A stretch of 64,000 nt of DNA from Muribaculaceae bacterium (GTDB lineage Bacteria > Bacteroidota > Bacteroidia > Bacteroidales > Muribaculaceae): contig JAFUKL010000024.1 of the NCBI GenBank assembly GCA_017473615.1, positions 4,029-68,028 on the forward strand. Reading direction: 5' to 3'. Made by a program: the position numbers and the translations under genes. Positions within the stretch are counted from its first letter, which is position 1. The number at the start of each line of letters is the position of its first letter. Positions 6,130 to 57,497 of this stretch are shown in pieces. The notes under the pieces were generated by a model, which was not told where the DNA came from, did not search any database, and worked only from the letters and a program-made list of their open reading frames with translations.

Positions 6130-6203
6130 TAGCGGGAACGAGAATTGAACTCGTGACCTCCGGGTTATGAATCCGACGCTCTAACCAACTGAGCTATCCC
6201 GCC
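6130..6203 (-). tRNA. tRNA with CAT anticodon (tRNA-Met, or tRNA-Ile2 if modified with lysidine)
   Basis: The reverse complement reads GGCGGGATAGCTCAGTTGGTTAGAGCGTCGGATTCATAACCCGGAGGTCACGAGTTCAATTCTCGTTCCCGCTA. It shows the acceptor stem, D arm (GCTC/GAGC), anticodon loop TTCATAA and T arm (ACGAG TTCAATT CTCGT). CCA is not encoded. Confidence 0.9.
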
Positions 6204-6442
6204 ATCCTTGTTTTGCGAGTGCAAAGGTAAACAACTTTTTTGATATTTGCAATACCCTGCCGTGGTTAAAAACGAGAAATATTAAAATTTTCTGTTTAGG
6301 AAGTTTTGGGAAATGTAGTGTGGTGGAAAGAGAGGATTAATTAAATCTATTGAGTGATAGATTTATATTGTTGCGTATGTGAATGAACGAAATTAATTTT
6401 GTGTCGAGAAAATGATTGTTAAACAAATAAAATATGATGATT

Positions 6443-6607
6443 ATGAAAAAGTATATTTGTATTCCTTGCGGTTGGATTTATGATCCTGAAGTTGGTGATC
6501 CTGATGGAGGTATTGCTCCGGGTACTGCATTTGAAGATATTCCGGATGATTGGACTTGCCCTTTGTGCGGCGTGACTAAGGATGACTTTGAAGAATATGA
6601 AGAATAG
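6443..6607 (+). CDS. Rubredoxin (54 aa; alternative start at 6434)
   Basis: My own translation is [54 protein letters not shown]. It carries the CxxCG ... CPxCG iron-binding motifs. The ORF is below the track's length cut-off. Confidence 0.9.
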
Positions 6608-6675: not shown

Positions 6676-6961
6676 TGATTTAAAGAAGTTGTTTGAATTA
6701 TATTGAAAAATATTATTACAGTTTTACTTGTGTCATGTTTCGGATTTTTTAAGGCTCTTTGGGCTGTCATTTTCATCAAACAGCTTGGAAATAGCCCACT
6801 ATTACCTGTGCAATTTGACGAAAAATCCATTCCAAAATATTCCTTAAAATAATATCGAAATAAAATTAAAGCAACTTCTAAAAAAATAGTGTATGAGGAA
6901 GTGAAATTTTAAGTAGGTTTTGTTGTTGTATTTATGTATCTATTAAAATAAATGAATGTCT

Positions 6962-7126
6962 ATGAAAAAGTATGTATGTGTGCCTTGTGGCTGGGTCTAT
7001 GACCCTGAAATCGGTGATTCTGATGGTAATATTGCAGCCGGAACACCATTTGAAGATTTGCCGGATGACTGGGTTTGTCCTTTGTGCGGAGCCGGGAAAG
7101 ATGACTTTATTCAAGAGGAGTCTTAA
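6962..7126 (+). CDS. Rubredoxin (54 aa), second tandem paralog
   Basis: My own translation is [54 protein letters not shown], with the same CxxCG/CPxCG motifs. Confidence 0.9.
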
Positions 7127-9405: not shown

Positions 9406-9426
9406 CAAGGCTGTTCTTATAAACCT

Positions 9427-9472
9427 AAAGGAGCTGAGCCAAAAAACAATTTTGACGCAGCTCCTTTTTTAT
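9427..9472 (+). terminator. Intrinsic terminator of the OmpA-family gene (shares a 31-nt identical block with 43284-43314)
   Basis: aaaggagctg ... cagctccttt hairpin followed by tttttatt. Confidence 0.8.
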
Positions 9473-23093: not shown

Positions 23094-23345
23094 GAAATTG
23101 TTTAGAAACTGTTTGAATTTTATTTCGAGATTATTTTAAGGAATATTTTGTAATGGTTTTTTTGACTGAATTTGGTGGCATGTTTTGATTAAGGCGTGCC
23201 GCCATTCGTTTTGTGGTTAGTTAAAATTTAACAGCTTTTTAGGGTAAACGCTTTCTTATTCGCTTTATATAAAACTATATCGGTAGCTTTATTAATCTTT
23301 GTAAGATGATTAATTCCATAAAATTACAAACCTAAAACAATTATA

Positions 23346-36829: not shown

Positions 36830-37088
36830 TTTGATTCAATATATTTCCGGTAACAAATTTAGATAAAATCTGCGAGATATTACACCGGCAGGATAATGAA
36901 AATGTTTTTTTCTTCAGAGGAAAGGTAATGAAAGGAGAGCGAAGAAAAAAACAAGTTCGCACGTTTTTTGTTGGAAATCTCACCCGCTCGCAATCGACAA
37001 TGTAGATTACGGAAGTGGCTATGCCAAAAAAATGACATAGCCACAGATGTGTTTGATTAATACCAAGCGAGGGTAATGTTTGTGTTAC

Positions 37089-38909
37089 TTAAAAGTGTAC
37101 TTTCGTGGTTTTACCTCCTTGTCGCTTGATGTAAACACCCTTTTCTGGGTTGTCTACCCGTACACCTTGCAAGTTGTAATACTCCACTGGTGTGGCTGAA
37201 CTATCAATAAATGTATTTTCTACAGTAGAAAATTTTTTCTCTGTAATAGTCCAGAAATCGCTCCATACATTAGCAGTGGAATAAATATCCTTGCAGTCTG
37301 TAGGAACTATAAGTTCTGCGTTGTCATAAACAGATTGTTCAAAGACATTTTTGTTTTCTAATAATGGAGGAGTTGGACTTTTTGAGATAATTTCTTTTAT
37401 ACTGCTGTTGTTAATAAAAGCTCCGGATTTAATCTTTTTTATCTTTGAGCCTAATGTTAATGTTTCTAATTTGCAATTGGAAAAAGCATATTCTCCTATG
37501 TTTACAACAGAATTAGGTATGGCTAATGATTTTAAGTTGCAGCCGGCGAATGATTTATCACCAATGCTTGTAACCGAATTAGGTATAGTAACGTAGGATA
37601 AATTAGAACAGTCCAAAAAAGCACCATTTTCTATTGTTTGTACTGTATTTGGGATGGTGTATTCTGATATGTTTTTTGTTGCTGGACAGCAAATTAATTT
37701 TGTTTTATCAAAAGAGTATAAAATTCCGTTTAATACTATTAATGCATTATTATTTCTATCTACTGAAATATCTTGTAATTTATTGCATCCTATTAAGAAA
37801 TTTCCAGTGTAATTTTTAAGTCCGGAACCAATTTGTATACTTTCCAATTTACTACAACGAGCAAAAGCATTGAAACCGATAGTTGTAACCGAATTAGGTA
37901 TTATTAAATCTGTAAAATTACAATAAGAAAAGGCGCTATCGCCGATAGTTATAACAGAATTAGGTATGATTAAATCTGTAAAATTACAATTATAAAAGGC
38001 GTTATCACCGATAGTTGTAACAGAATTAGGTATGATTAAATCTGTAAAATTACAATTATAAAAGGCGTTATCACCGATGGTCGTAACGGAATTTGGGATG
38101 TTTAAAGATTTTAAGTTACAATAAGAGAATGCATTGTTACCAATGGTTGTGACTGTACTTGGGATTTCATAAGTTGTTCTACTTGAGTTATTTGGATAAG
38201 CGATGAGTTTTGTCCTATCAAAGCTGAAAAGGACACCGTCTTTTGCACGAAATTGTCGATTTTCACTATCGGTAGCAAAATAATCTATAAAAGATAAGTC
38301 AAAGGCATGATTTTCAATCTCTCTTACGTTGCCCCCTAATGTCAATGTGTTGATTTCCGATCCTATAAATGCATAATCACGAATTGTGAACACTGAATTT
38401 GGAATAATATAATCTTCATTTGAAATCACGATATGATAAAATAAACAGGTTTTATCGTAATTAAATAATGTACCGCCTTCAAAACAAAAATGTTTATTAT
38501 TTGAATCGATTTGAATTGATTTTAAGTTTGGACAATCACAGAACTGACGCCCCTCAATCTCTTGTAACCCATCACCGATTTCAATGGATGTTAACCAATA
38601 GCATTGATTAAAAGCATCGTTTTTTATTATAATTACTGAATTTGGAATATTCACATACTCGGTGTAGTCGTCCCAAAATGCATGAGTGCCAATAGAAATA
38701 ACATTGTATGTTAAATTTTTATATGTTATATTTGAAGGAATAATAACATTTACCAGGTCTAAATCAGTTCCTACAACTTCAGCAGTTTTTTCTGTTTCTG
38801 AAAGAATGTTGTAATAAATACCATCAATTTCGAAATCATGAGAGAATGATTGAAAACTAACAAAAAGAGATAAGGATAACATCAGTTTCTTAAAAATAGT
38901 ATGTTTCAT
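37089..38909 (-). CDS. BspA-like leucine-rich-repeat surface protein with a T9SS C-terminal sorting domain
   Basis: It has a signal peptide, ~22-23-aa IPNSVTxIGxxAFxxCxxL repeats throughout, and a C-terminal YNLQGVRVDNPEKGVYIKRQGGKTTKVHF sorting-domain pattern. Confidence 0.9.
   Translation of the reverse strand: MKHTIFKKLMLSLSLFVSFQSFSHDFEIDGIYYNILSETEKTAEVVGTDLDLVNVIIPSNITYKNLTYNVISIGTHAFWDDYTEYVNIPNSVIIIKNDAFNQCYWLTSIEIGDGLQEIEGRQFCDCPNLKSIQIDSNNKHFCFEGGTLFNYDKTCLFYHIVISNEDYIIPNSVFTIRDYAFIGSEINTLTLGGNVREIENHAFDLSFIDYFATDSENRQFRAKDGVLFSFDRTKLIAYPNNSSRTTYEIPSTVTTIGNNAFSYCNLKSLNIPNSVTTIGDNAFYNCNFTDLIIPNSVTTIGDNAFYNCNFTDLIIPNSVITIGDSAFSYCNFTDLIIPNSVTTIGFNAFARCSKLESIQIGSGLKNYTGNFLIGCNKLQDISVDRNNNALIVLNGILYSFDKTKLICCPATKNISEYTIPNTVQTIENGAFLDCSNLSYVTIPNSVTSIGDKSFAGCNLKSLAIPNSVVNIGEYAFSNCKLETLTLGSKIKKIKSGAFINNSSIKEIISKSPTPPLLENKNVFEQSVYDNAELIVPTDCKDIYSTANVWSDFWTITEKKFSTVENTFIDSSATPVEYYNLQGVRVDNPEKGVYIKRQGGKTTKVHF
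37902..38099. repeat. Three near-identical tandem 66-bp units inside the LRR gene
   Basis: Units start at 37902, 37968 and 38034. They encode IPNSVTTIGDNAFYNCNFTDLI repeated nearly verbatim. Confidence 0.9.
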
Positions 38910-38959
38910 AAATAAAGAATATTTATGCCAACTAAGTCCCGAGATGGCGATTTATATAA

Positions 38960-39185
38960 AAAAATAAGGTGTGGGACTATATTTGCTTTATCCTATTAAC
39001 AGGCTTCTCGCATTGCCTACGGTATGGATAAAACAACAGCCCACACCAATTTGACAATATCATGACCCTTATAAGGAGATATATCAAACGGTGTGGTGCT
39101 ATTGCCACCATCTTCATACCGTTTCAAATTTTGCGAGAATTTGTCAATAGAAGATAATTTCAATAACACCTTTCTGATAATATGT
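38960..39185 (-). ncRNA. Conserved ~225-nt candidate structured 5' leader RNA (copy 1), upstream of the LRR gene
   Basis: It aligns block by block with 53845-54083. Nested helices are 39005-39012/39132-39139, 39019-39026/39115-39122 and 39034-39040/39098-39104. The middle helix differs in sequence but stays complementary in copy 2. Confidence 0.5.
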
Positions 39186-39216
39186 CTGCTCGCACATGTT
39201 ATGTGTGTGAACGATA

Positions 39217-39224
39217 CAAAGGTA
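39217..39224 (-). promoter_or_regulatory. Candidate -7 box TACCTTTG (minus strand) upstream of leader copy 1
   Basis: It matches TAnnTTTG ~30 nt upstream of the conserved element. Confidence 0.4.
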
Positions 39225-39370
39225 TAAAATAATTAGGAATTAGGAGTCAGGTGATAAAAGTTTTTTGCATATACTGGTCATTAATCGACAATGTAGAAAT
39301 TATGTAAGGGGCTGTACTGAAATTGAAGTACAGCCCCTACTTATCTGATTTTTAGGATAGTTGAATTTGC

Positions 39371-39769
39371 TTAACTTACAGTGCAGCCTTTTTCTGTAAT
39401 GTTAAGAGTAGCTTTTTTAACAGTTTTACCCTTGGTCGTTTTTAGATATAAAGTCATTTTAAGAGTTCCTTTAAGACCTGATACACCACCGGAAAATTCA
39501 GATTTAAATTCATCAACGATCACGTTGAATAAATACAAAGCTTCATCCTTGGTTAAAGCGTTCCATGATTCAGATGCAAGTTCAGAATTCATTTCAGATT
39601 CCAATTCGACTAATTGCTGAGCAGTGAATCCGCCACCGGATAGATCTAATTCAACGAAATAATCTTGAATACCCAATTCTTCATCTTCATCATCATCACT
39701 ACAGCTCACCATTGGTAAGCATAATGCCATCAAAAGCAGCACATAAGAAAAGTACTTTAATTTTTTCAT
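39371..39769 (-). CDS. Small acidic lipoprotein (132 aa), function unknown
   Basis: Lipobox LPMVSCSDDDEDEE. It is preceded by a promoter motif shared with the nine-gene operon. Confidence 0.65.
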   Translation of the reverse strand: MKKLKYFSYVLLLMALCLPMVSCSDDDEDEELGIQDYFVELDLSGGGFTAQQLVELESEMNSELASESWNALTKDEALYLFNVIVDEFKSEFSGGVSGLKGTLKMTLYLKTTKGKTVKKATLNITEKGCTVS

Positions 39770-39993: not shown

Positions 39994-40938
39994 ATGAAGA
40001 TTTTTTGTGCAAAATATATAATTTCGTTGTTATTGCTGCAGTGTGTTACTTCGTGTTTTACAGGGATTGAAAATACAAAGAAGATAACAGAAAAGGACGT
40101 GGCTAAGGTAGTGCAGGAAAGAGCCGGAATGACCGAACAAGAGACTGCATACAATAGCATCGTTGCCGATTCCTTTCCGACTTGGGAAAGAGGCAAGCGG
40201 TTTCATGTGGTAGATAATGGTATAAAACGTATTTTTTCACCTTCTTCGCAGTATGATGCCGATACATTGAATATCGCCGGGAAAATATTGGAGTATACCG
40301 GATATACTGAGGGGAGTATATTGGATAATGAGCCTAAGATTAATTTATGCTTTTCTGATGGGGTGAATGAGTATGTTTATTCCACCAATAAAACCTTAGA
40401 AGAAATAGAACGTCAGCAGATAATGTTGCAAGTACCTTTCTTGGTAGATGCCGCTCTCGTCGAGAAATATGATGAATTGCTCGAAAGAAAGGTGTTTTAT
40501 ATACGCACGTCTATATGGTATAATGAGAAAGGTGAGATGATTCCGGGTAAGAAATTCATAAGGGTGAAAATAATCGATGTTCTTCCCGGTGACAAGGTGT
40601 TTCCGTTACGGGTTATGTTTGAGACTGAAGACGGTGCAAAAGCCTGTTTGTTTATGTCTACTAAACAATCTTCTGTGCAAAATCGTCTCTTTGACAATTT
40701 GTTTTCGGAAAAAGATATAAGGCTTAATTATCCGCTGATTACCGAAACCACTTGGAAACATATAGTTAACGGTACTGTTGCAATAGATATGACGAAAGAT
40801 GAGTGCCGACTGTCACTTGGAACACCGGGAAGTATTCAGGAACGTCCCACTTATGACGGACTTCAAGAATACTGGTTCTATGGAGATGGAATGTATTTGA
40901 TATTTTTTGACGGCAGGCTGAAGCAATTTAGACGATGA
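39994..40938 (+). CDS. Lipoprotein (314 aa), possible BamE/SmpA_OmlA-like C-terminal module
   Basis: Lipobox-like LLLLQCVTSCF. The C-terminal DMTKDECRLSLGTPGSIQER pattern resembles SmpA/OmlA domains, but this is weak. Confidence 0.6.
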   Translation: MKIFCAKYIISLLLLQCVTSCFTGIENTKKITEKDVAKVVQERAGMTEQETAYNSIVADSFPTWERGKRFHVVDNGIKRIFSPSSQYDADTLNIAGKILEYTGYTEGSILDNEPKINLCFSDGVNEYVYSTNKTLEEIERQQIMLQVPFLVDAALVEKYDELLERKVFYIRTSIWYNEKGEMIPGKKFIRVKIIDVLPGDKVFPLRVMFETEDGAKACLFMSTKQSSVQNRLFDNLFSEKDIRLNYPLITETTWKHIVNGTVAIDMTKDECRLSLGTPGSIQERPTYDGLQEYWFYGDGMYLIFFDGRLKQFRR

Positions 40939-41708
40939 ATACACATGGAGAAATAGAGTTCTTGGGTACAGGTACATCTACAGGGATACCTGTAATAGGC
41001 TGTGACTGTGAAGTGTGCCGCTCATGCGACAGTAAAGACAAGCGTTTGAGAACATCTGCCATAGTGCGTATTGCAGGGAAAAGTATATTGATAGATTGTG
41101 GCCCTGACTTCAGGGAACAGATGCTTAGAGCTACGTCGAGTGTTCTTGATATGGTGTTGCTCACTCACAGCCATTACGACCATGTAGGCGGTATCGATGA
41201 CTTGCGCCCGTATTGTTATCCCGATCATTTTCCGGTTTTTGCGCAGTGTAATGTCTTGGAAGACCTGCGGGAAAGAGTGCCATATTGTTTCACTGAAAAT
41301 CCATACCCCGGTGTACCACAATTTAAATTAAATGTAGCCGATGCCGACCATTCGATAGATTTTGAGGGGTTGCATATAGAAGTGCTGCCTATATGGCATT
41401 ATAAACTGTTGATAAACGGATTCAGGATAGGTGAGCATCTTGCCTATATCACTGATGCCAAGGCTATTGATGATGCAGTGGTGAAAATATTGAAAGGTGT
41501 GGACTTATTGGTGATAAATTCATTGCGCAAAGCGCCGCACATGTCGCACATGTCACTTGAGGAAACTCTTGATGCCATAAAGAGAATAAGCCCTAAAAAC
41601 GCCTATCTTATTCACATGAGCCATGATATGGGTAGGCATGAGGATGTTTCAAAGGAACTTCCGGACGGAGTGCATTTTGCCTATGATGGGATGATTGTAC
41701 GATTTTAA
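40935..41708 (+). CDS. MBL-fold metallo-hydrolase (PhnP/GPR-like)
   Basis: LTHSHYDHVGG metal-binding motif. The N-terminus is FLGTGTSTGIP. Confidence 0.85.
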   Translation: MNTHGEIEFLGTGTSTGIPVIGCDCEVCRSCDSKDKRLRTSAIVRIAGKSILIDCGPDFREQMLRATSSVLDMVLLTHSHYDHVGGIDDLRPYCYPDHFPVFAQCNVLEDLRERVPYCFTENPYPGVPQFKLNVADADHSIDFEGLHIEVLPIWHYKLLINGFRIGEHLAYITDAKAIDDAVVKILKGVDLLVINSLRKAPHMSHMSLEETLDAIKRISPKNAYLIHMSHDMGRHEDVSKELPDGVHFAYDGMIVRF

Positions 41709-43238: not shown

Positions 43239-43294
43239 TATACTCCTATTGAGCTAAATCTTAATGCCTTGCATTTTGTAATTCTTATAAACCT

Positions 43295-43331
43295 AAAGGA
43301 GCTGAGCCAAAAAATGACACAGCTCCTTTTT
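43295..43331 (+). terminator. Intrinsic terminator of gdhA (shares a 31-nt block with the terminator at 9416-9446)
   Basis: aaaggagctg..cagctccttt followed by ttt. Confidence 0.8.
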
Positions 43332-49866: not shown

Positions 49867-49910
49867 AATAAAAAAGCGTCCAATCGGGATGGATTGAACG
49901 CTTAGCAATT
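49867..49910 (-). terminator. Intrinsic terminator (minus strand) after the 342-aa gene. The 44-nt block is identical to 54266-54309.
   Basis: The minus strand reads aattgctaagcgttcaatccatcccgattggacgcttttttatt. Confidence 0.7.
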
Positions 49911-50014
49911 ATATATTGTTGTTAAGATTTTAGTAGTAAGTCTGCTATTGCCTTAAATTTAGATGAAATACTCATTGTTTAATGCTTACCCGATATTATT
50001 CAAGTTGTAAAAGT

Positions 50015-51043
50015 TTATTGTATTATTTGCTTCTGTGTTTTCTTATCTAATTTGTAAAGTTTACCATCAGACCATAGAAAAGCAGTGCTGTTAGAACTGA
50101 CTCTTGTTACAAATAAAATTTGGGAGAAATCCGAAGTATAGTATGCCACAGTTTCGGTTTTTGGATTCTCTGTTTCAAAAACACATTTATCTTCAAATCG
50201 AGAGGTTATGACAGCTTTATCCTTTGTTTTGATTTGTAGTGATAAGTTCTCAAATATTCCATTTTTACTTTCATCGGCATATTTATGAACGTCTATGATG
50301 GTGTTAGAGTCAACAGTCTCAGCTAATCCTGCTACGTCGGCTGACGCTACAGAAGAAAGAGCCTTGCCAAAATTAAATTTCTTTTTTGTTGCAAGACCTA
50401 TTTGTCCGGAGGATAGTAAATTTTCAAAAACAGATTTGGTCTTATATTCGGGTGTTGCTTTATATTTGATTTCGGCTTGGCGCTTTTCTTCTTCAGCGGC
50501 AGCTTTTTCCGCAGCTTCTTTTTCTTTTTCTGCTTTTCGTTCCAGAACATCATATATTTCGCTGTTGCACAATGTGATTCCAAATTCTTTCGTAATTTCA
50601 GAACCCTCTTTTGACATAATTATATTTCCCAAGACATCGACAAAAGCTTCAGGGTATTTGTATTCATGTTTAAGAATGTCGTAAAATTCATGTGTTTCGT
50701 CTAGCTCAAAAGCTTTTATAGTTCCATCCATGGTTGTATTTGCTGAGTGAATAGCTTGACCAGAAAAATCCATAAGGCTCTTTGATGTTAATTTAAATTT
50801 TATTTTATTGTCTTCAACCCATGCCTTGCCTTTTAATCTGAGTCCAATACCACTATCGGTGACCTCTCCTTTAAGTTCACACTCATTACCGGCAACAGAA
50901 ACTATGTTTAACCTAAAAGCAAAAGGTCTAAGTGCTGACCATACAGCGTCTTTGCTCGCAAATCTGTTCCATGTGTCATTTTGTGCGAAAGAGCATAGTG
51001 TAAACAGCATAATAAAAGCTGTTGTGATAGTTATTTTTCTCAT
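50015..51043 (-). CDS. Secreted protein with a central charged coiled-coil (342 aa), function unknown
   Basis: It has a signal peptide (ITTAFIMLFTLCSFA) and the segment ERKAEKEKEAAEKAAAEEEKRQAEIK. Confidence 0.65.
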   Translation of the reverse strand: MRKITITTAFIMLFTLCSFAQNDTWNRFASKDAVWSALRPFAFRLNIVSVAGNECELKGEVTDSGIGLRLKGKAWVEDNKIKFKLTSKSLMDFSGQAIHSANTTMDGTIKAFELDETHEFYDILKHEYKYPEAFVDVLGNIIMSKEGSEITKEFGITLCNSEIYDVLERKAEKEKEAAEKAAAEEEKRQAEIKYKATPEYKTKSVFENLLSSGQIGLATKKKFNFGKALSSVASADVAGLAETVDSNTIIDVHKYADESKNGIFENLSLQIKTKDKAVITSRFEDKCVFETENPKTETVAYYTSDFSQILFVTRVSSNSTAFLWSDGKLYKLDKKTQKQIIQ

Positions 51044-51107
51044 ATTGATAATTATTAGATTAGTATAAATATTTTTTGTAATGAAATTTGTAGCTAAAAA
51101 AATGCGT

Positions 51108-53009
51108 TTATAGGATTACTTTGAAATATTTGTTGTTTACTTTCACTATGTACAAGCCTTTTACTGTAACCGGTATTGTTGTAGCATTACCGCAATATAC
51201 GCATTGACCGTTCATGTTGTAAACTTCCACATTTACATTATCAGCAGTGCCATTTATTATGATATTTCCATTTTCAACAGAAACCGCCACATCATTATCT
51301 GCAAGAGTTGATTCAACTCCCGACATATCCATTTCCTGTATTGTTAAGAAATTGTTCCAAGGAGCTGTTATCTGGTATAGATATAATGAACCTGTTGGAA
51401 TATATAGTGTGGCATTGTTGTAAACAGTGTCGGAGAATATGTTACCGTAAGCATAAGCCGGTTTTTCCTTACGCGATACGATACTATTTAGAGCGGTGCA
51501 ACCATAGAACGCCTGTTCGCTAAATGTCATAATCTTACTACCAAGAGTTAAGTTGGTCAGTCCGCTACATTCACGAAACGCACCACCTCCTATTTCAGTT
51601 ACACTATCAGGAATTGTCAGTTCTGTTAGTCCTGCACAACCATAAAATGCTCTGTCTCCGATATACGTTACATTACTGGGTATCGTTAGCTCAGTCAGTC
51701 CGCTACAACCTTCAAATGCACCACCTCCTATTTCATTTACGTTATTGCCAATTGTCAATTCTGTTAGTCTGCTACAATCTTTAAACGCACCATCTCCTAT
51801 TTCGGTTACGTTATCAGGAATTGTTAGTTCAGTGAGTCCTGTACATTGAGAAAACGCATAATCAGGTATTGTTTTCACGTTATCTCCTATTGTAAGTTTT
51901 GACAATGAAGGACTATCACTAAAACAATTATATGCCATAGTACAACTTTCAGCGTTATAAACAACTTCAGTCAGTCCGCTGCAACCTGAAAACGCTCCGA
52001 GTCCTATTTCGGTTACGCTATTACCAATTGTTATACTCGTCAGTCCGGAACAACCCATAAACGCTGATTCTCCAATAGAAGTTACGCTGTTAGGAATTCT
52101 TACTTCTGTCAGCCCAGTGCAGCCATAAAACGCATACTCAGGTATTATTTTTACATTATCTCCTATTGTAAGTTTTGACAATAATTTACAATCATCAAAA
52201 ACATAAAAAAGAAGACTACCCATAGTTTTACAAATATTTGCGTTAAAAAACACTTCAGTAAGCTTGGTACAATTACCAAACGCCCAGTTACCAATATAAG
52301 TCACACTATTGGGGATTGTCAGTTCTGTCAGTCCTGTGCAACCGTAAAATGCGCTACCTCCGATAGATGTCACACTATTTGGAATTGTCAGTTCAGTGAG
52401 TCCGGTACAATCGCTAAACGCAACTCCTGCAATTAATCGGGTATCATCGTTAAGTACCAAAGTCCCTGAAGGTTTATCACCTTTATATCCTAAGCAACAA
52501 TCATCTAAGTATAATATTCCATTAGGTTGATTGTTATACCAGCCTGAATCTTCGAAAGCATTTTGTCCAATGCTGGTAACGGAATTTGGTATTGTTATTT
52601 CAGTCAGTCCGCTGCAACCTGAAAACGCTCCGTCTCCTATTTCGGTTACACTATCAGGAATTAACAGTTCTGTCAGTCCTGCACAACCATAAAATGCTCT
52701 GTCTCCGATAGACGTTACACTATTGGGTATCGTTATTTCAGTCAGTCCTGTGCAGTTCCTAAACGCATTTGTACCAATAGATGTCACCCTATAAGTTTTA
52801 TCTTGATAGGTAACGTTATTGGGAATGACGACATCGTTTGTATATTCATATTCATAGTATGAATAATATGTAACCTCACAAGTTATGTCCGTTGTTGAAG
52901 TAATGTTATAATAGATGCTATCTACTTCAAAGTCGTATGCTGATAAAGTTCCGCTTGATGTAACCAATGCGACTATCGCAAGGATTGTTCTTAATATTGA
53001 TTTTTTCAT
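51108..53009 (-). CDS. BspA-like leucine-rich-repeat surface protein with a T9SS C-terminal sorting domain (paralog of 37089-38909)
   Basis: It has a signal peptide, many IPNSVTSIGxxAFxGCxGLTE repeats, and the C-terminal VYNMNGQCVY...GLYIVKVNNKYFKVIL sorting-domain pattern. Confidence 0.9.
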   Translation of the reverse strand: MKKSILRTILAIVALVTSSGTLSAYDFEVDSIYYNITSTTDITCEVTYYSYYEYEYTNDVVIPNNVTYQDKTYRVTSIGTNAFRNCTGLTEITIPNSVTSIGDRAFYGCAGLTELLIPDSVTEIGDGAFSGCSGLTEITIPNSVTSIGQNAFEDSGWYNNQPNGILYLDDCCLGYKGDKPSGTLVLNDDTRLIAGVAFSDCTGLTELTIPNSVTSIGGSAFYGCTGLTELTIPNSVTYIGNWAFGNCTKLTEVFFNANICKTMGSLLFYVFDDCKLLSKLTIGDNVKIIPEYAFYGCTGLTEVRIPNSVTSIGESAFMGCSGLTSITIGNSVTEIGLGAFSGCSGLTEVVYNAESCTMAYNCFSDSPSLSKLTIGDNVKTIPDYAFSQCTGLTELTIPDNVTEIGDGAFKDCSRLTELTIGNNVNEIGGGAFEGCSGLTELTIPSNVTYIGDRAFYGCAGLTELTIPDSVTEIGGGAFRECSGLTNLTLGSKIMTFSEQAFYGCTALNSIVSRKEKPAYAYGNIFSDTVYNNATLYIPTGSLYLYQITAPWNNFLTIQEMDMSGVESTLADNDVAVSVENGNIIINGTADNVNVEVYNMNGQCVYCGNATTIPVTVKGLYIVKVNNKYFKVIL

Positions 53010-53018
53010 AAGTGGGAA

Positions 53019-53738
53019 TTATTTTAGGGATTTACATTTAAAAGGAATGGGAAAAGATGCTGTAAGAGTTTCTGATGTCACGCAATGAGCCTTTATATAT
53101 TCCACCAACTCTTCCGGACAGCGACTATAGCAAAAATCGCGTGGCAATGACGGGTGAATCTCACTTGGTATATCTACGTAATTTCCTTTAGGGAAATAAT
53201 AGAATTCTTCGCATACAAGCACGGCATCTGCTTTCAAATCGCTCTCCGTCCAACCCTGATGATTTTTTCCGGCTCTTTGTCGATAACCCTTGTCGGCACT
53301 TTCACACGGTTCGTAAATGTTGTCTCCACATTTGCGGTAGCAGTCGTTATCCTCATCGGATACGGTCGCTGAACCGCAACACGGTTTCGTGGTTTTCTTG
53401 GGATTGGAAACTGTTGCTCCGCTGCAAGATGATGGTTCGCTCGCAACGGATTGTTCGATTGGTCGTTTCTCCGGGAAAAGTTGCCAGTACTCGGCAAATG
53501 TGAGTTTTCCTGTGATTTTTGCAAGATAGACAAGTTTTTCTTCACCTATTTTCTGTTTAGGATTCAATGGCTTTCCTGTAAAGCCTGCAATCCAATCACC
53601 GGGTTTGGCAACTCGACGAATGTTAGGCTTGCAGGTGGCAAGGGTGAGTACACCGTAGAATGGATTTGGTGCAAAACCTGTGTCACACGTCATTTTGTAG
53701 CAAAAGACTTTCATAAACACTGTTTTTGTGTTTCTCAA
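53019..53738 (-). CDS. Cys-rich cytoplasmic protein (239 aa), possibly Nmad2-like; function unknown
   Basis: The N-terminal pattern YKMTCDTGFAPNPFYGVLTLATCKPNIRRVAKPGDWIAGF resembles, from memory, the nucleotide-modification-associated domain 2 family. The likely start is the internal MKVFCYKM. The gap to the LRR gene is 9 nt. Confidence 0.6.
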   Translation of the reverse strand: MRNTKTVFMKVFCYKMTCDTGFAPNPFYGVLTLATCKPNIRRVAKPGDWIAGFTGKPLNPKQKIGEEKLVYLAKITGKLTFAEYWQLFPEKRPIEQSVASEPSSCSGATVSNPKKTTKPCCGSATVSDEDNDCYRKCGDNIYEPCESADKGYRQRAGKNHQGWTESDLKADAVLVCEEFYYFPKGNYVDIPSEIHPSLPRDFCYSRCPEELVEYIKAHCVTSETLTASFPIPFKCKSLK

Positions 53739-53844
53739 TCTCCCAATGAAACAGGTTAATATTCATTTTCCTATTGTGTCGTGTTTGTGAGGTCATTTTT
53801 TTGTAGCACCTTTCAAGTGCGAGAGAGGGACTTGCAAGCGGACA

Positions 53845-54083
53845 CAAAAAAGGTGTGGAGATTGTACTTCTGTTTTATCTCAAATTCAGGCTCTCGCATT
53901 GCCTTTGCAGTAGATAAAACAATAGCTCCCACACCGATATTGCTATATGATACCACACAACAGTGGCATAGATATAGGCAACCGACGCAGGTGCTATTGC
54001 CAATCTTATCTTCACTGCATTATCAAACTTGCGAGATTTGAATTTGGAAGACAAAATTTCAATAACACCTTTCGTTAATATGT
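53845..54083 (-). ncRNA. Conserved candidate structured 5' leader RNA (copy 2)
   Basis: It is homologous to 38960-39185. Helices are 53892-53898/54030-54036, 53906-53911/54014-54019 (compensatory relative to copy 1) and 53920-53926/53993-53999. Confidence 0.5.
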
Positions 54084-54124
54084 AAAGACACTTCTGCCAA
54101 CTCTTTGACTTAATGTCTTCGTTA

Positions 54125-54132
54125 CAAAATTA
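54125..54132 (-). promoter_or_regulatory. Candidate -7 box TAATTTTG (minus strand) upstream of leader copy 2
   Basis: It matches TAnnTTTG ~40 nt upstream of the conserved element. Confidence 0.4.
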
Positions 54133-54265
54133 ATGAAAAAATGTTGTGGTGAGAGCTTAATCCACGAAAATATTTAATAAAAAGTTTTTTCGTGGTAAAA
54201 ATATCGATAGATATTATACCTTTTCAAGTGCTGTAGAGAAAGAGATTAGTGCTCCCGTCATTTGA

Positions 54266-54309
54266 AATAAAAAAGCGTCCAATCGGGATGGATTGAACGC
54301 TTAGCAATT
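54266..54309 (-). terminator. Intrinsic terminator of rpoD (44-nt block identical to 49867-49910)
   Basis: It has the same hairpin plus T-run and lies 14 nt downstream of the rpoD stop. Confidence 0.75.
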
Positions 54310-57129: not shown

Positions 57130-57491
57130 GATAGTATGGCGGCTTGTCGCTCACCGGCATGTACGGTGTGAGGAAAGTCCGGGCAACGCAGAGCATCATA
57201 TTTCTTAACGGGAAGCTATCGGTGACGGTAGAGCAGCGTGACAGAAAATAACCGCCTTCTTTGCGGGAGGTAAGGGTGAAAATGTGAGGTAAGAGCTCAC
57301 GGGTCGCTATGGCGACATAGTGGCGGCACGTCTTATGAGTTGCAAGGTCAAGTATATCGGCATTTAAGGGTTGCTCGCCCATTGCCGAGGGGTAGACTGC
57401 TAAAGCGTAATGGCAACATTGCGTTCAGATAAATGACAGGCAGGTATTCGTTTGAGAATACTTACATAACCCGGCTTATAGCTGTACTATC
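57130..57491 (+). ncRNA. rnpB: RNase P RNA, bacterial type A
   Basis: Universally conserved GAGGAAAGTCCGGGC, ACAGAAAATAACCGCC, GGTAAGGGTGAAA, GTAAGAGCTCAC and ACATAACCCGGCTTA. P1 pairing is gatagta (57130) / tactatc (57485-57491). Confidence 0.92.
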
Positions 57492-57497
57492 AAGTAT

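Follow-up and report, generated by a model that had tools for sequence, protein, structure and literature searches.

Two copies of a conserved, highly structured RNA family, probably cis-acting leaders, in a Muribaculaceae genome: homologues of Bacteroides thetaiotaomicron BTnc163

Bacteroidales belong to a phylum without Shine-Dalgarno-based initiation and without Hfq, and the expression of newly acquired genes in these bacteria is poorly understood. Here we report on a 64,000-nucleotide stretch of a Muribaculaceae genome (assembly GCA_017473615.1, contig JAFUKL010000024.1, positions 4,029 to 68,028; hereafter the window), in which an element at 38960-39185 (copy 1) recurs at 53845-54083 (copy 2), each time ahead of genes on the minus strand. 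An initial annotation, made from the letters of the window, read the element as a candidate structured leader RNA or riboregulator. The locus thus raises the question of whether a functional RNA is made here and what it does for the genes behind it. Both copies are members of one transcribed, highly structured RNA family. A functional RNA is very probably made from the minus strand, and its most probable role is that of a cis-acting, terminator-containing leader, a reading that we favour with some reserve.

Aligned on the minus strand, 38930-39260 and 53810-54150 have a mean column identity of 76%, with long identical blocks between diverged stretches. All the conserved blocks named in the initial annotation are present in the alignment of both copies, and the three longest (GAAAGGTGTTATTGAAATT, TGGCAATAGCACC and AGGCAATGCGAGA) occur exactly twice each in the window, which exceeds their occurrence in shuffled sequence; the resemblance of the two copies is not a product of chance. 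The functional unit is longer than the stretch given in the initial annotation and reaches from the promoter box at 39224 to the ATG at 38909 in copy 1, and from 54132 to 53714 in copy 2.

The family was collected with the search pattern TTGTTTTATC-N8-AGGCAATGCGAG, scanned over one genome per prokaryotic species (GTDB species genomes). This yielded 91 further loci that are nearly all titled Bacteroidales (Bacteroides, Phocaeicola, Parabacteroides, Mediterranea, Muribaculaceae, Alistipes/Rikenellaceae, Prevotellaceae and Porphyromonadaceae); among the carriers are B. salyersiae DSM 18765, B. cellulosilyticus DSM 14838, Phocaeicola massiliensis DSM 17679 and P. distasonis An897. Some short carrier contigs binned as Clostridia or Bacillota are presumed to be mis-binned. 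The same pattern is matched by 13 IMG/VR contigs with the same gene context, and a BLAST search of the element against plasmid and phage collections gave zero matches. The elements are solitary: an nhmmer profile search of all loci and the window revealed no arrays, and apart from each element's own reverse-strand echo the only additional copies were a partial one (locus L063) and a match to the upstream part (locus L082). Genomes carry one to three copies, which are mutually diverged. With Rfam 15 at gathering thresholds, the whole window matched only RNase P and one tRNA, and a permissive scan of 38800-39400 gave chance-level matches only (E of at least 0.16). The initial annotation did not recognise the element as a named RNA family, and Rfam has no matching family, but the RNA is not wholly unnamed, one member being catalogued as BTnc163 (see below).

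The anatomy of the elements is described in the sense of the downstream gene, i.e., for the minus strand of the window (Table 1). The -7 box TAnnTTTG, already noticed upstream of copy 1 on the minus strand, is conserved in 80 of 80 members and ends 39-58 nt ahead of the rod. A first hairpin (stem-loop 1, SL1), variable in sequence but kept in fold, starts 0-8 nt past the box, where the transcript is expected to begin, and is joined by a linker (often GGACAUAUUUAACG) to the rod (SL2). The rod has a mean length of 216 nt, extends from AAAGGUGU to ACACCUUU and is directly followed by a U-run; its basal helix and the motif UU(A/U)UUU are conserved in the family alignment. Past the U-run follows a small hairpin (SL3), whose loop is complementary to an internal loop of the rod just 5' of CACACC and so forms a pseudoknot, with variants such as GUUCCC/GGGAAC, AAUCCUC/GAGGAUU, GUACCC/GGGUAC and GCUUCC/GGAAGC. 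Each window copy has a compensated variant of its own, AGUCCC/GGGACU in copy 1, which is the only element with this variant, and AAUCUCC/GGAGAUU in copy 2. An ATG lies 22-35 nt beyond the SL3 loop motif in 73 of 84 elements (mode 28-31 nt), ahead of unrelated proteins, and no TAnnTTTG box was seen in the 50-60 nt between U-run and ATG when the sequences were read by eye and not scanned.

On the minus strand, both window copies fold into a single long hairpin (copy 1, -80.4 kcal/mol, z -7.6; copy 2, -85.9 kcal/mol, z -7.7), and none of 200 shuffles was as stable in either case. The rod of copy 1 contains the three helices P1, P2 and P3 of the initial annotation, and the ATG of its gene lies about 30 nt past the SL3 loop motif. 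In copy 2, about 90-100 nt are inserted between U-run and SL3, and SL3, the compensated pseudoknot and a spacing of 29 nt to the ATG at 53714 are all kept. The inserted stretch (53753-53848, minus strand) contains pieces that resemble blocks of the element (CTCTCGCA, GAAAGGTG), as if part of it had been duplicated.

The fold was evaluated in a structure-blind MAFFT alignment of 74 distinct members (alignment A2). In the rod, SL3 and the pseudoknot together, 92.1% of the cells are paired, compared with 84.1% in shuffled alignments and 41-47% when the partners are slid by 1-3 columns. Changes on both sides occur in 27 pairs (460 cells), and 0 of 500 shuffles reached any of five measures. The pseudoknot helix is 95.9% paired, with both sides changing in 5 of its 6 pairs, and at least five of the six pairs are formed in 84 of 85 elements. 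At a given position, the variable basal helix and P2 use up to four Watson-Crick pair types. The three helices drawn in the initial annotation are all borne out: P1 (UCUCGCA/UGCGAGA) is invariant among the 74 members, the compensatory change claimed for P2 recurs as changes on both sides in 6 of 10 pairs, and P3 corresponds to the helix of blocks C and D, in which many pairs alternate between A-U and G-U and are workable on the minus strand only. Helix C:D contains many one-sided A/G changes facing a fixed U.

The same data identify the strand. Of 75 rods, 74 fold more stably on the coding strand than as the reverse complement (mean margin 11.3 kcal/mol), and the rod pairs comprise 434 G-U cells vs 108 A-C cells; the stabler coding-strand fold, the excess of G-U and the A/G changes opposite U imply that the folded molecule has the sense of the downstream gene. 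Transcription from the minus strand, as the initial annotation had argued, agrees with this asymmetry, with the promoter box and with a mapped start site in Bacteroides thetaiotaomicron (B. theta), and covariation, strand asymmetry, promoter box and B. theta transcript jointly support its view of the element as a structured leader RNA or riboregulator.

Two other readings were weighed. A folded mRNA could encode a small hydrophobic peptide, for instance a type I toxin, and an open reading frame (ORF) of 46-59 hydrophobic residues does cross the hairpin in both window copies, with some shared residues. However, the ORF from the conserved AUG spans anything from 2 to 70 codons across 75 members, block D is read in all three frames (46, 16 and 13 members), and a 2-nt indel stands inside a block that is conserved at the nucleotide level. 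The small-protein reading was rejected on the lack of conservation of ORF length and frame, and we consider it almost certainly wrong. Alternatively, the hairpin might act as folded single-stranded DNA during conjugation, as a single-strand origin, a priming site or an Frpo-like promoter for early leading-region genes. It shares with Frpo elements a long imperfect hairpin with strand preference, about one quarter of the loci resemble integrative and conjugative elements (ICEs; with DUF3871, RadC and a small tyrosine-recombinase gene upstream), and some downstream genes look like anti-restriction or conflict functions, e.g. Lar and Kinase-PolyVal. An Frpo element must fold on the template strand, however, whereas the coding strand gives the better fold in 74 of 75 cases. 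Furthermore, the conserved promoter lies outside the hairpin (no TAnnTTTG box was seen in the gene-proximal arm, which was read by eye), ordinary B. theta cultures contain much of the RNA, made from a normal double-strand promoter, this model gives no role to the pseudoknot or to the constant distance to the ATG (nor would a DNA palindrome need a conserved pseudoknot), and the chromosomal islets that hold the window copies are small and lack transfer genes, yet both copies have compensated pseudoknots. We regard a function as single-stranded DNA as improbable.

That an RNA of this family is made can be seen in B. theta. Two predicted small ORFs in the supplementary tables of Ryan et al. 2020 (PMC7366714) are printed with sequences that include the family blocks, and both lie inside the small RNA (sRNA) BTnc163. 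The fragments GTGTTATTGAAATTATCTTC... and ...GGTGTGGGGCTATTGTTTTATCC...AGGCAATGCGAGAAGCC...GGATAA match blocks A, D, E and F, and the segments of the variable helix are complementary (CTGTTTCTT/AAGAAACAG); the P2 segment measures 9 nt instead of 8, which is why the search pattern missed this locus. The transcription start site (TSS) was placed by differential RNA sequencing at 3765732 (+), with promoter motif PM1 and a coverage of about 1,700 (PMC7366714), and block A begins about 50 nt past it, in agreement with the family anatomy. In a later annotation, BTnc163 covers 3765732-3766002 (PMC11697453); its 271 nt equal the length predicted from TSS to U-run. A crosslinking and immunoprecipitation (CLIP) peak of the RNA-binding protein RbpB (peak 135; 3765744-3765801, i.e., +12 to +69; log2 fold change 4.05, adjusted p 0.021; PMC11697453) spans SL1, the linker and the start of the rod. 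BTnc163 is an abundant, RbpB-bound and uncharacterised member of the family. It is not mentioned in the paper texts that were searched and exists as a catalogue entry only, with no structure, family or function, and the sequences of the family blocks are absent from the main texts of the searched literature and were matched only in supplementary tables. The RNA is therefore known but uncharacterised, with BTnc163 already catalogued and the window elements as new members, and the fold of the family, the pseudoknot, the two-state potential, the fixed gene junction and the mobile context appear to be undescribed in the literature that could be reached.

The rod is not the only fold that these sequences allow. 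Its 5' and 3' halves are each self-complementary and reach on their own a mean of -38.8 and -34.0 kcal/mol, vs -84.7 kcal/mol for the rod; the four halves in the window have z values of -4.2 to -7.2. The isolated 3' half folds into a long hairpin in 74 of 74 members, and its GC-rich base (GGUGUGGG/CCCACACC) abuts the U-run. As modelled, this half-hairpin is a textbook intrinsic terminator that would bury the pseudoknot site; a simple terminator scanner, limited to loops of up to 8 nt, misses it. Helix A:C is likewise fully formed (100% of cells paired) in all 74 sequences, and the six of its pairs that vary alternate between Watson-Crick and wobble only. In minimum-energy folds of the growing transcript, block A is first paired with C, at lengths of about 82 to 135 nt; D later takes the place of A, which finally pairs with F. 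Double changes cluster in two helices that are exclusive to the rod and are nearly absent from the blocks common to both folds; such invariance of the shared blocks, next to rod-only helices that are free to covary, is what a double constraint predicts. The attenuator-like alternative pairings suggested in the initial annotation are thus present as a conserved potential, with GGUGUGGG/CCCACACC formed in all 74 isolated 3' halves, and in these models the RNA looks like a two-state switch in which the rod with its pseudoknot is the expressing state.

From these features we propose how a leader of this kind might work. A standard Bacteroidetes promoter would start an RNA with a 5' hairpin, then the rod of about 100 bp and a U-run at the base of the rod. 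Much of the transcription would stop at the U-run and leave an RNA of about 270 nt, the sRNA seen in B. theta. Polymerases that read through would add SL3, whose loop would pair with the internal loop at the base of the rod. The leader would thereby be packed into a closed body with its end about 15-18 nt upstream of the start codon, whichever gene comes next, so that a short open region would be left for ribosome entry and the start codon would be presented in a fixed, unstructured context. The leader would in this way gate transcription into the downstream genes in cis, with the rod and pseudoknot as the on state and the two-hairpin terminator as the off state, and a candidate trigger of the switch is RbpB, whose binding in B. 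theta is to the 5' part of the RNA.

Several points weigh against a role as cis-acting leader or against parts of it. Read-through, regulation and an effect on the downstream genes are what we infer from the models. Ryan et al. class BTnc163 as an independent intergenic sRNA (PMC7366714), and in the 2020 data the first ~100 nt had a coverage of 1,803 vs 74 in the 3' arm, a difference of about 24-fold (PMC7366714), which could reflect processing or library bias and which the cis model leaves unexplained. The two-hairpin fold has no covariation of its own, since its blocks do not vary, and their invariance could equally reflect protein binding; moreover, the rod also ends in a helix followed by U residues, so that the choice of the terminating state is a guess. 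Blocks D and E were fixed by the search pattern, and their invariance is partly built into the sample. Finally, the members are related and have spread horizontally, so that significance is overstated by the shuffle controls. In the 2020 annotation, BTnc163 stops at +102 (NC_004663 3765834; PMC7366714), inside the 5' arm, and the Source Data also list position 3765906 of NC_004663 (+174, the start of the 3' half-hairpin), in a column whose meaning could not be interpreted. Taken with the drop in coverage, these positions hint at processing of the rod.

The main rival to a cis-acting leader is a free-standing, trans-acting sRNA with its own terminator, which would work with RbpB on distant targets and would neighbour accessory genes as a result of shared mobile elements. 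The cataloguing of BTnc163 as an intergenic sRNA, with a later annotation that ends at the U-run, its recovery as an RbpB CLIP ligand like other base-pairing sRNAs, and the hairpin plus U-run in every member of the family all speak for it. It leaves unexplained, however, why covariation with the rod extends, in 84 of 85 elements, to a hairpin located past the terminator and why the SL3 loop is spaced 28-31 nt from the start codons of unrelated genes, and a rod with some 100 bp has little single-stranded sequence to offer as a seed. We consider this reading considerably less probable than a leader, but the most serious of the alternatives, and the two roles are not mutually exclusive.

What stands behind the leaders is highly diverse. 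The initial annotation had placed the element upstream of leucine-rich repeat (LRR) loci of the type IX secretion system (T9SS). An LRR gene does stand behind copy 1, but the element is not specific to LRR genes: the genes of the family are diverse, and copy 2 directly precedes an Nmad2 gene; in the two LRR proteins of the window, Pfam searches found LRR domains only and no T9SS tail at E < 0.001. The link to T9SS LRR proteins is incidental. Across the loci, gene families include LRR_5 (13 members), one lipoprotein family (35 members) and many unrelated singletons. The downstream operons have one to eight genes each, which are tightly packed and of highly varied nature, most of them without a Pfam match; the domains found comprise LRR_5, Lipocalin_4, DUF4595, RHS-repeat lipoproteins, Lar, DnaJ, CD225, SPFH, Nmad2, ADP-ribosylglycohydrolase, Kinase-PolyVal, PLD and Fic-like domains. 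Near-identical leaders stand ahead of unrelated genes, and similar genes stand behind different leader variants; in grouped sequences that were inspected, the homology of the leaders ends between SL3 and the ATG, within a span of about 15 nt. The genes upstream in the same orientation encode DUF3871 at 25 loci, a 195-aa Phage_integrase-family protein at 20 and RadC at 14, in addition to toxin-antitoxin pairs and resolvases, as in an ICE-like setting. The 195-aa protein belongs to the tyrosine-recombinase family, comprises the catalytic domain only, and is encoded about 0.3-1.9 kb upstream (loci L012, L048, L055, L062 and others), usually after DUF3871 and RadC. The promoter and leader form a module that travels with mobile elements of Bacteroidales and heads varied operons of accessory genes.

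This setting suggests a recombination site of the integron attI/attC or rAID-1 type, at which a tyrosine recombinase would swap cassettes behind a fixed promoter. In favour are the near-identical leaders before unrelated genes with a break of homology within ~15 nt, the Phage_integrase-family gene upstream on the same strand at 20 loci, and a folded hairpin with conserved boxes and variable paired parts, which recalls attC; in addition, rAID-1 clusters are described as carrying a conserved motif just 3' of the recombinase and integron-like features (10.1101/471110). The elements are solitary, however, and not arrayed behind each gene; they lie 5' of the genes with a promoter of their own; a recombinase is missing from the vicinity of most loci and stands at varying distances at the others; the downstream arrays are tightly packed without repeats between the genes; the junction has no evident shared core beyond a loose GCAYAA; and the evidence at the RNA level would remain unaccounted for. 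We therefore think it improbable, to the same degree as a function as single-stranded DNA, that the element is such a site.

Both window copies lie in segments bounded by direct repeats. In the case of copy 2, perfect 44-bp repeats (49867-49910 and 54266-54309), which represent the terminator hairpin of rpoD, enclose an islet, and in 10 related contigs with identical RpoD the site is empty: rpoD is directly followed by leuA, and one copy of the repeat is present. An empty site with a single repeat implies that copy 2 arrived by insertion; an integrase is absent from the insertion. Around copy 1, the 15-bp sequence AATCGACAATGTAGA occurs at 36992-37006 and 39283-39297 (the chance recurrence of a 15-mer is estimated at ~0.02 per 6.4 kb). 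No empty site was found for copy 1, as the contigs recovered belong to the same strain and break in the LRR repeats, and the ends of the two islets are shared with none of the other loci. AATGAC stands just inside the upstream repeat of both islets on the minus strand, directly at copy 1 and after TCA at copy 2, which may be chance.

A further reading is that of a selfish palindromic repeat, i.e., a miniature inverted-repeat transposable element (MITE) like Correia or ERIC, that carries a promoter by chance. The element is a long imperfect palindrome with matching ends (AAAGGTGT...ACACCTTT), and two copies occur in 64 kb, each within a repeat-bounded segment. The repeats, however, bound the whole gene-carrying islet and not the palindrome, there are only one to three diverged copies per genome (76% identity here), orientation and spacing to the next gene are fixed, and the extensive compensatory change, together with a pseudoknot beyond the palindrome, indicates that an RNA fold is under selection; a MITE is hence highly improbable. 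The readings as single-stranded DNA, recombination site, MITE and small protein each fail at least one direct test.

Table 1. Features of the two RNA elements and their islets in the window.
Feature	Position	Strand	Basis
Copy 1, -7 promoter box TACCTTTG (TAnnTTTG)	39217..39224	-	Sequence; B. theta homologue with mapped TSS, PM1-type promoter
Copy 1, SL1, predicted 5' end of transcript	39188..39212	-	Fold
Copy 1, rod (SL2), 209-nt imperfect hairpin, AAAGGUGU to ACACCUU	38965..39173	-	-80.4 kcal/mol, covariation
Copy 1, U-run UUAUUUUUUU, directly past basal helix	38958..38967	-	Conserved in alignment A2
Copy 1, pseudoknot 5' side AGUCCC, in basal internal loop of rod	38973..38978	-	Complements GGGACU at 38935-38940
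Copy 1, SL3 (GCCA...UGGC), loop GGGACU (38935-38940) as pseudoknot 3' side	38927..38948	-	Covarying helices
Copy 1, gene for BspA-type LRR protein (LRR_5, E = 5e-84)	37089..38909	-	Pfam
Copy 1 with LRR gene, possible second insertion	36992..39297	-	Exact 15-bp direct repeat
Copy 2, -7 promoter box TAATTTTG	54125..54132	-	Sequence
Copy 2, SL1 hairpin	54084..54120	-	Fold, -11.7 kcal/mol
Copy 2, rod (SL2), 224 nt	53849..54072	-	-83 to -86 kcal/mol, z -7.7
Copy 2, U-run UUUUUUGUGU	53842..53851	-	Sequence
Copy 2, pseudoknot 5' side AAUCUCC	53857..53863	-	Complements GGAGAUU at 53737-53743
Copy 2, SL3 (GUUUC...GAAAC), loop GGAGAUU	53730..53752	-	Fold
Copy 2, first gene, Nmad2-domain protein	53019..53714	-	Pfam
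Copy 2, further gene, LRR_5	51108..53009	-	Pfam
Copy 2, further gene, 342 aa, no Pfam match	50015..51043	-	Pfam
Copy 2 with three genes, 4.36-kb insertion	49911..54265	-	44-bp direct repeats and empty sites

Some other features of the window were recorded. A perfect 33-nt direct repeat (TTCTTATAAACCTAAAGGAGCTGAGCCAAAAAA; 9414-9446 and 43282-43314), whose copies are 33.9 kb apart, encloses the region of copy 1 and could represent a repeated terminator or the ends of a larger island. Near copy 1, a gene of 257 aa (40935-41708, plus strand) matches the Pfam families Lactamase_B and Anti-Pycsar_Apyc1 and follows a 314-aa gene with a weak nucleotidyltransferase match. A 65-nt inverted repeat (6821-6885 and 23098-23162) is 88% complementary, with its arms 16 kb apart, and a 153-nt direct repeat (6437-6589 and 6956-7108; 76% identity) lies near a tRNA gene (6130-6203, minus strand). 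The RNase P match, at 57131-57494 on the plus strand, is a bacterial class A RNA (225.9 bits), overlapped on the opposite strand by a spurious ORF of 107 aa.

The probable cis-acting leader stands in front of genes of a kind that gut Bacteroidales constantly exchange, such as adhesin-like LRR proteins, lipoproteins that are possible immunity factors, and anti-restriction genes. If it gates or standardises the expression of mobile genes, it would explain how such genes function across many hosts, and it would offer a ready-made natural leader for the engineering of Bacteroides. A bolder version, which we consider rather unlikely as a whole, sees a portable, self-insulating expression platform for captured genes combined with a real switch and a dedicated mechanism of making junctions: any captured gene would be joined at a fixed point about 15 nt past SL3, the choice between rod and two hairpins would be read by a factor of the host or of the element, such as RbpB, and the junctions would possibly be made by the upstream tyrosine recombinase that has no DNA-binding domain. 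Equally speculative is a self-cleaving or ligand-sensing activity of the conserved internal loops. The RNA itself occurs in at least 90 species-level genomes with unusually clear covariation and is a well-supported candidate for a new Rfam family; BTnc163, which is bound by a global RNA-binding protein, RbpB, and yet was never studied, gains a structure and a context.

The family can be compared with several known systems. 6S RNA gave no match even at E <= 10, the rod has no central bubble, and the two copies are each linked to a gene; the FopS family comprises unrelated, short sRNAs that regulate polysaccharide utilization loci. Frpo and ssi elements are likewise imperfect, strand-specific hairpins of 200-300 nt on transferable DNA before early genes, but in them the fold is that of the template strand and the stem itself holds the promoter hexamers, unlike the coding-strand fold and outside promoter found here, and an Frpo-type element was rejected for the strand favoured (74 of 75) and for the box upstream of the hairpin. 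Membership in a MITE family was rejected in view of two diverged copies in the window, one per related locus, and of their fixed orientation.

As in integrons (Pc-attI) and rAID-1, one conserved, promoter-bearing region precedes interchangeable accessory genes, often with a tyrosine-recombinase-family gene upstream, and lipoproteins and conflict-type domains are found among the downstream genes (10.1101/471110). With regard to the features of rAID-1, a recombinase-family gene lies upstream at 20 loci, and arrays of one to eight small genes lie downstream, without repeated spacers. Unlike these systems, the present family has no cassette arrays with repeated sites, lacks a recombinase at most loci, and conserves a folded RNA instead of a short core; attC and attI sites of integrons were rejected, as each locus has a single element, which stands ahead of the genes with a promoter of its own, and no IntI was seen.

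Structured leader RNAs that decide on the continuation of transcription have been described for conjugative and phage operons, namely conAn2 of pLS20, put of HK022 and EAR (PMC6294495). As there, a structured leader heads operons of mobile elements, but there is no match in sequence or structure, no related Rfam family and no partner protein conserved nearby.

Attenuators and riboswitch platforms share with the present RNA the position between promoter and ORF, the hairpin with U-run and the invariance of doubly constrained segments, and in attenuators, too, four segments can pair either 1:2 and 3:4 or 2:3 and 1:4. In contrast to attenuators, the RNA has no aptamer, leader peptide or known effector and is far larger (~100 bp), its alternative to the terminator is a full rod that also ends at the U-run, and it has an extra pseudoknot past the terminator. 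As regards a riboswitch, conserved internal loops exist, but the varied downstream genes suggest no ligand. The leader RNA of HIV-1 switches between a rod-like form with a long-distance interaction and a branched form with multiple hairpins; the choice between a rod and local hairpins that expose different loops is alike, in an RNA that differs in sequence, organism and purpose, so that the likeness is an analogy only. BTnc163, in contrast, has the same blocks, a TSS and PM1 promoter about 50 nt before the rod and a 271-nt extent that ends at the expected U-run, and is a homologue of both elements in the window.

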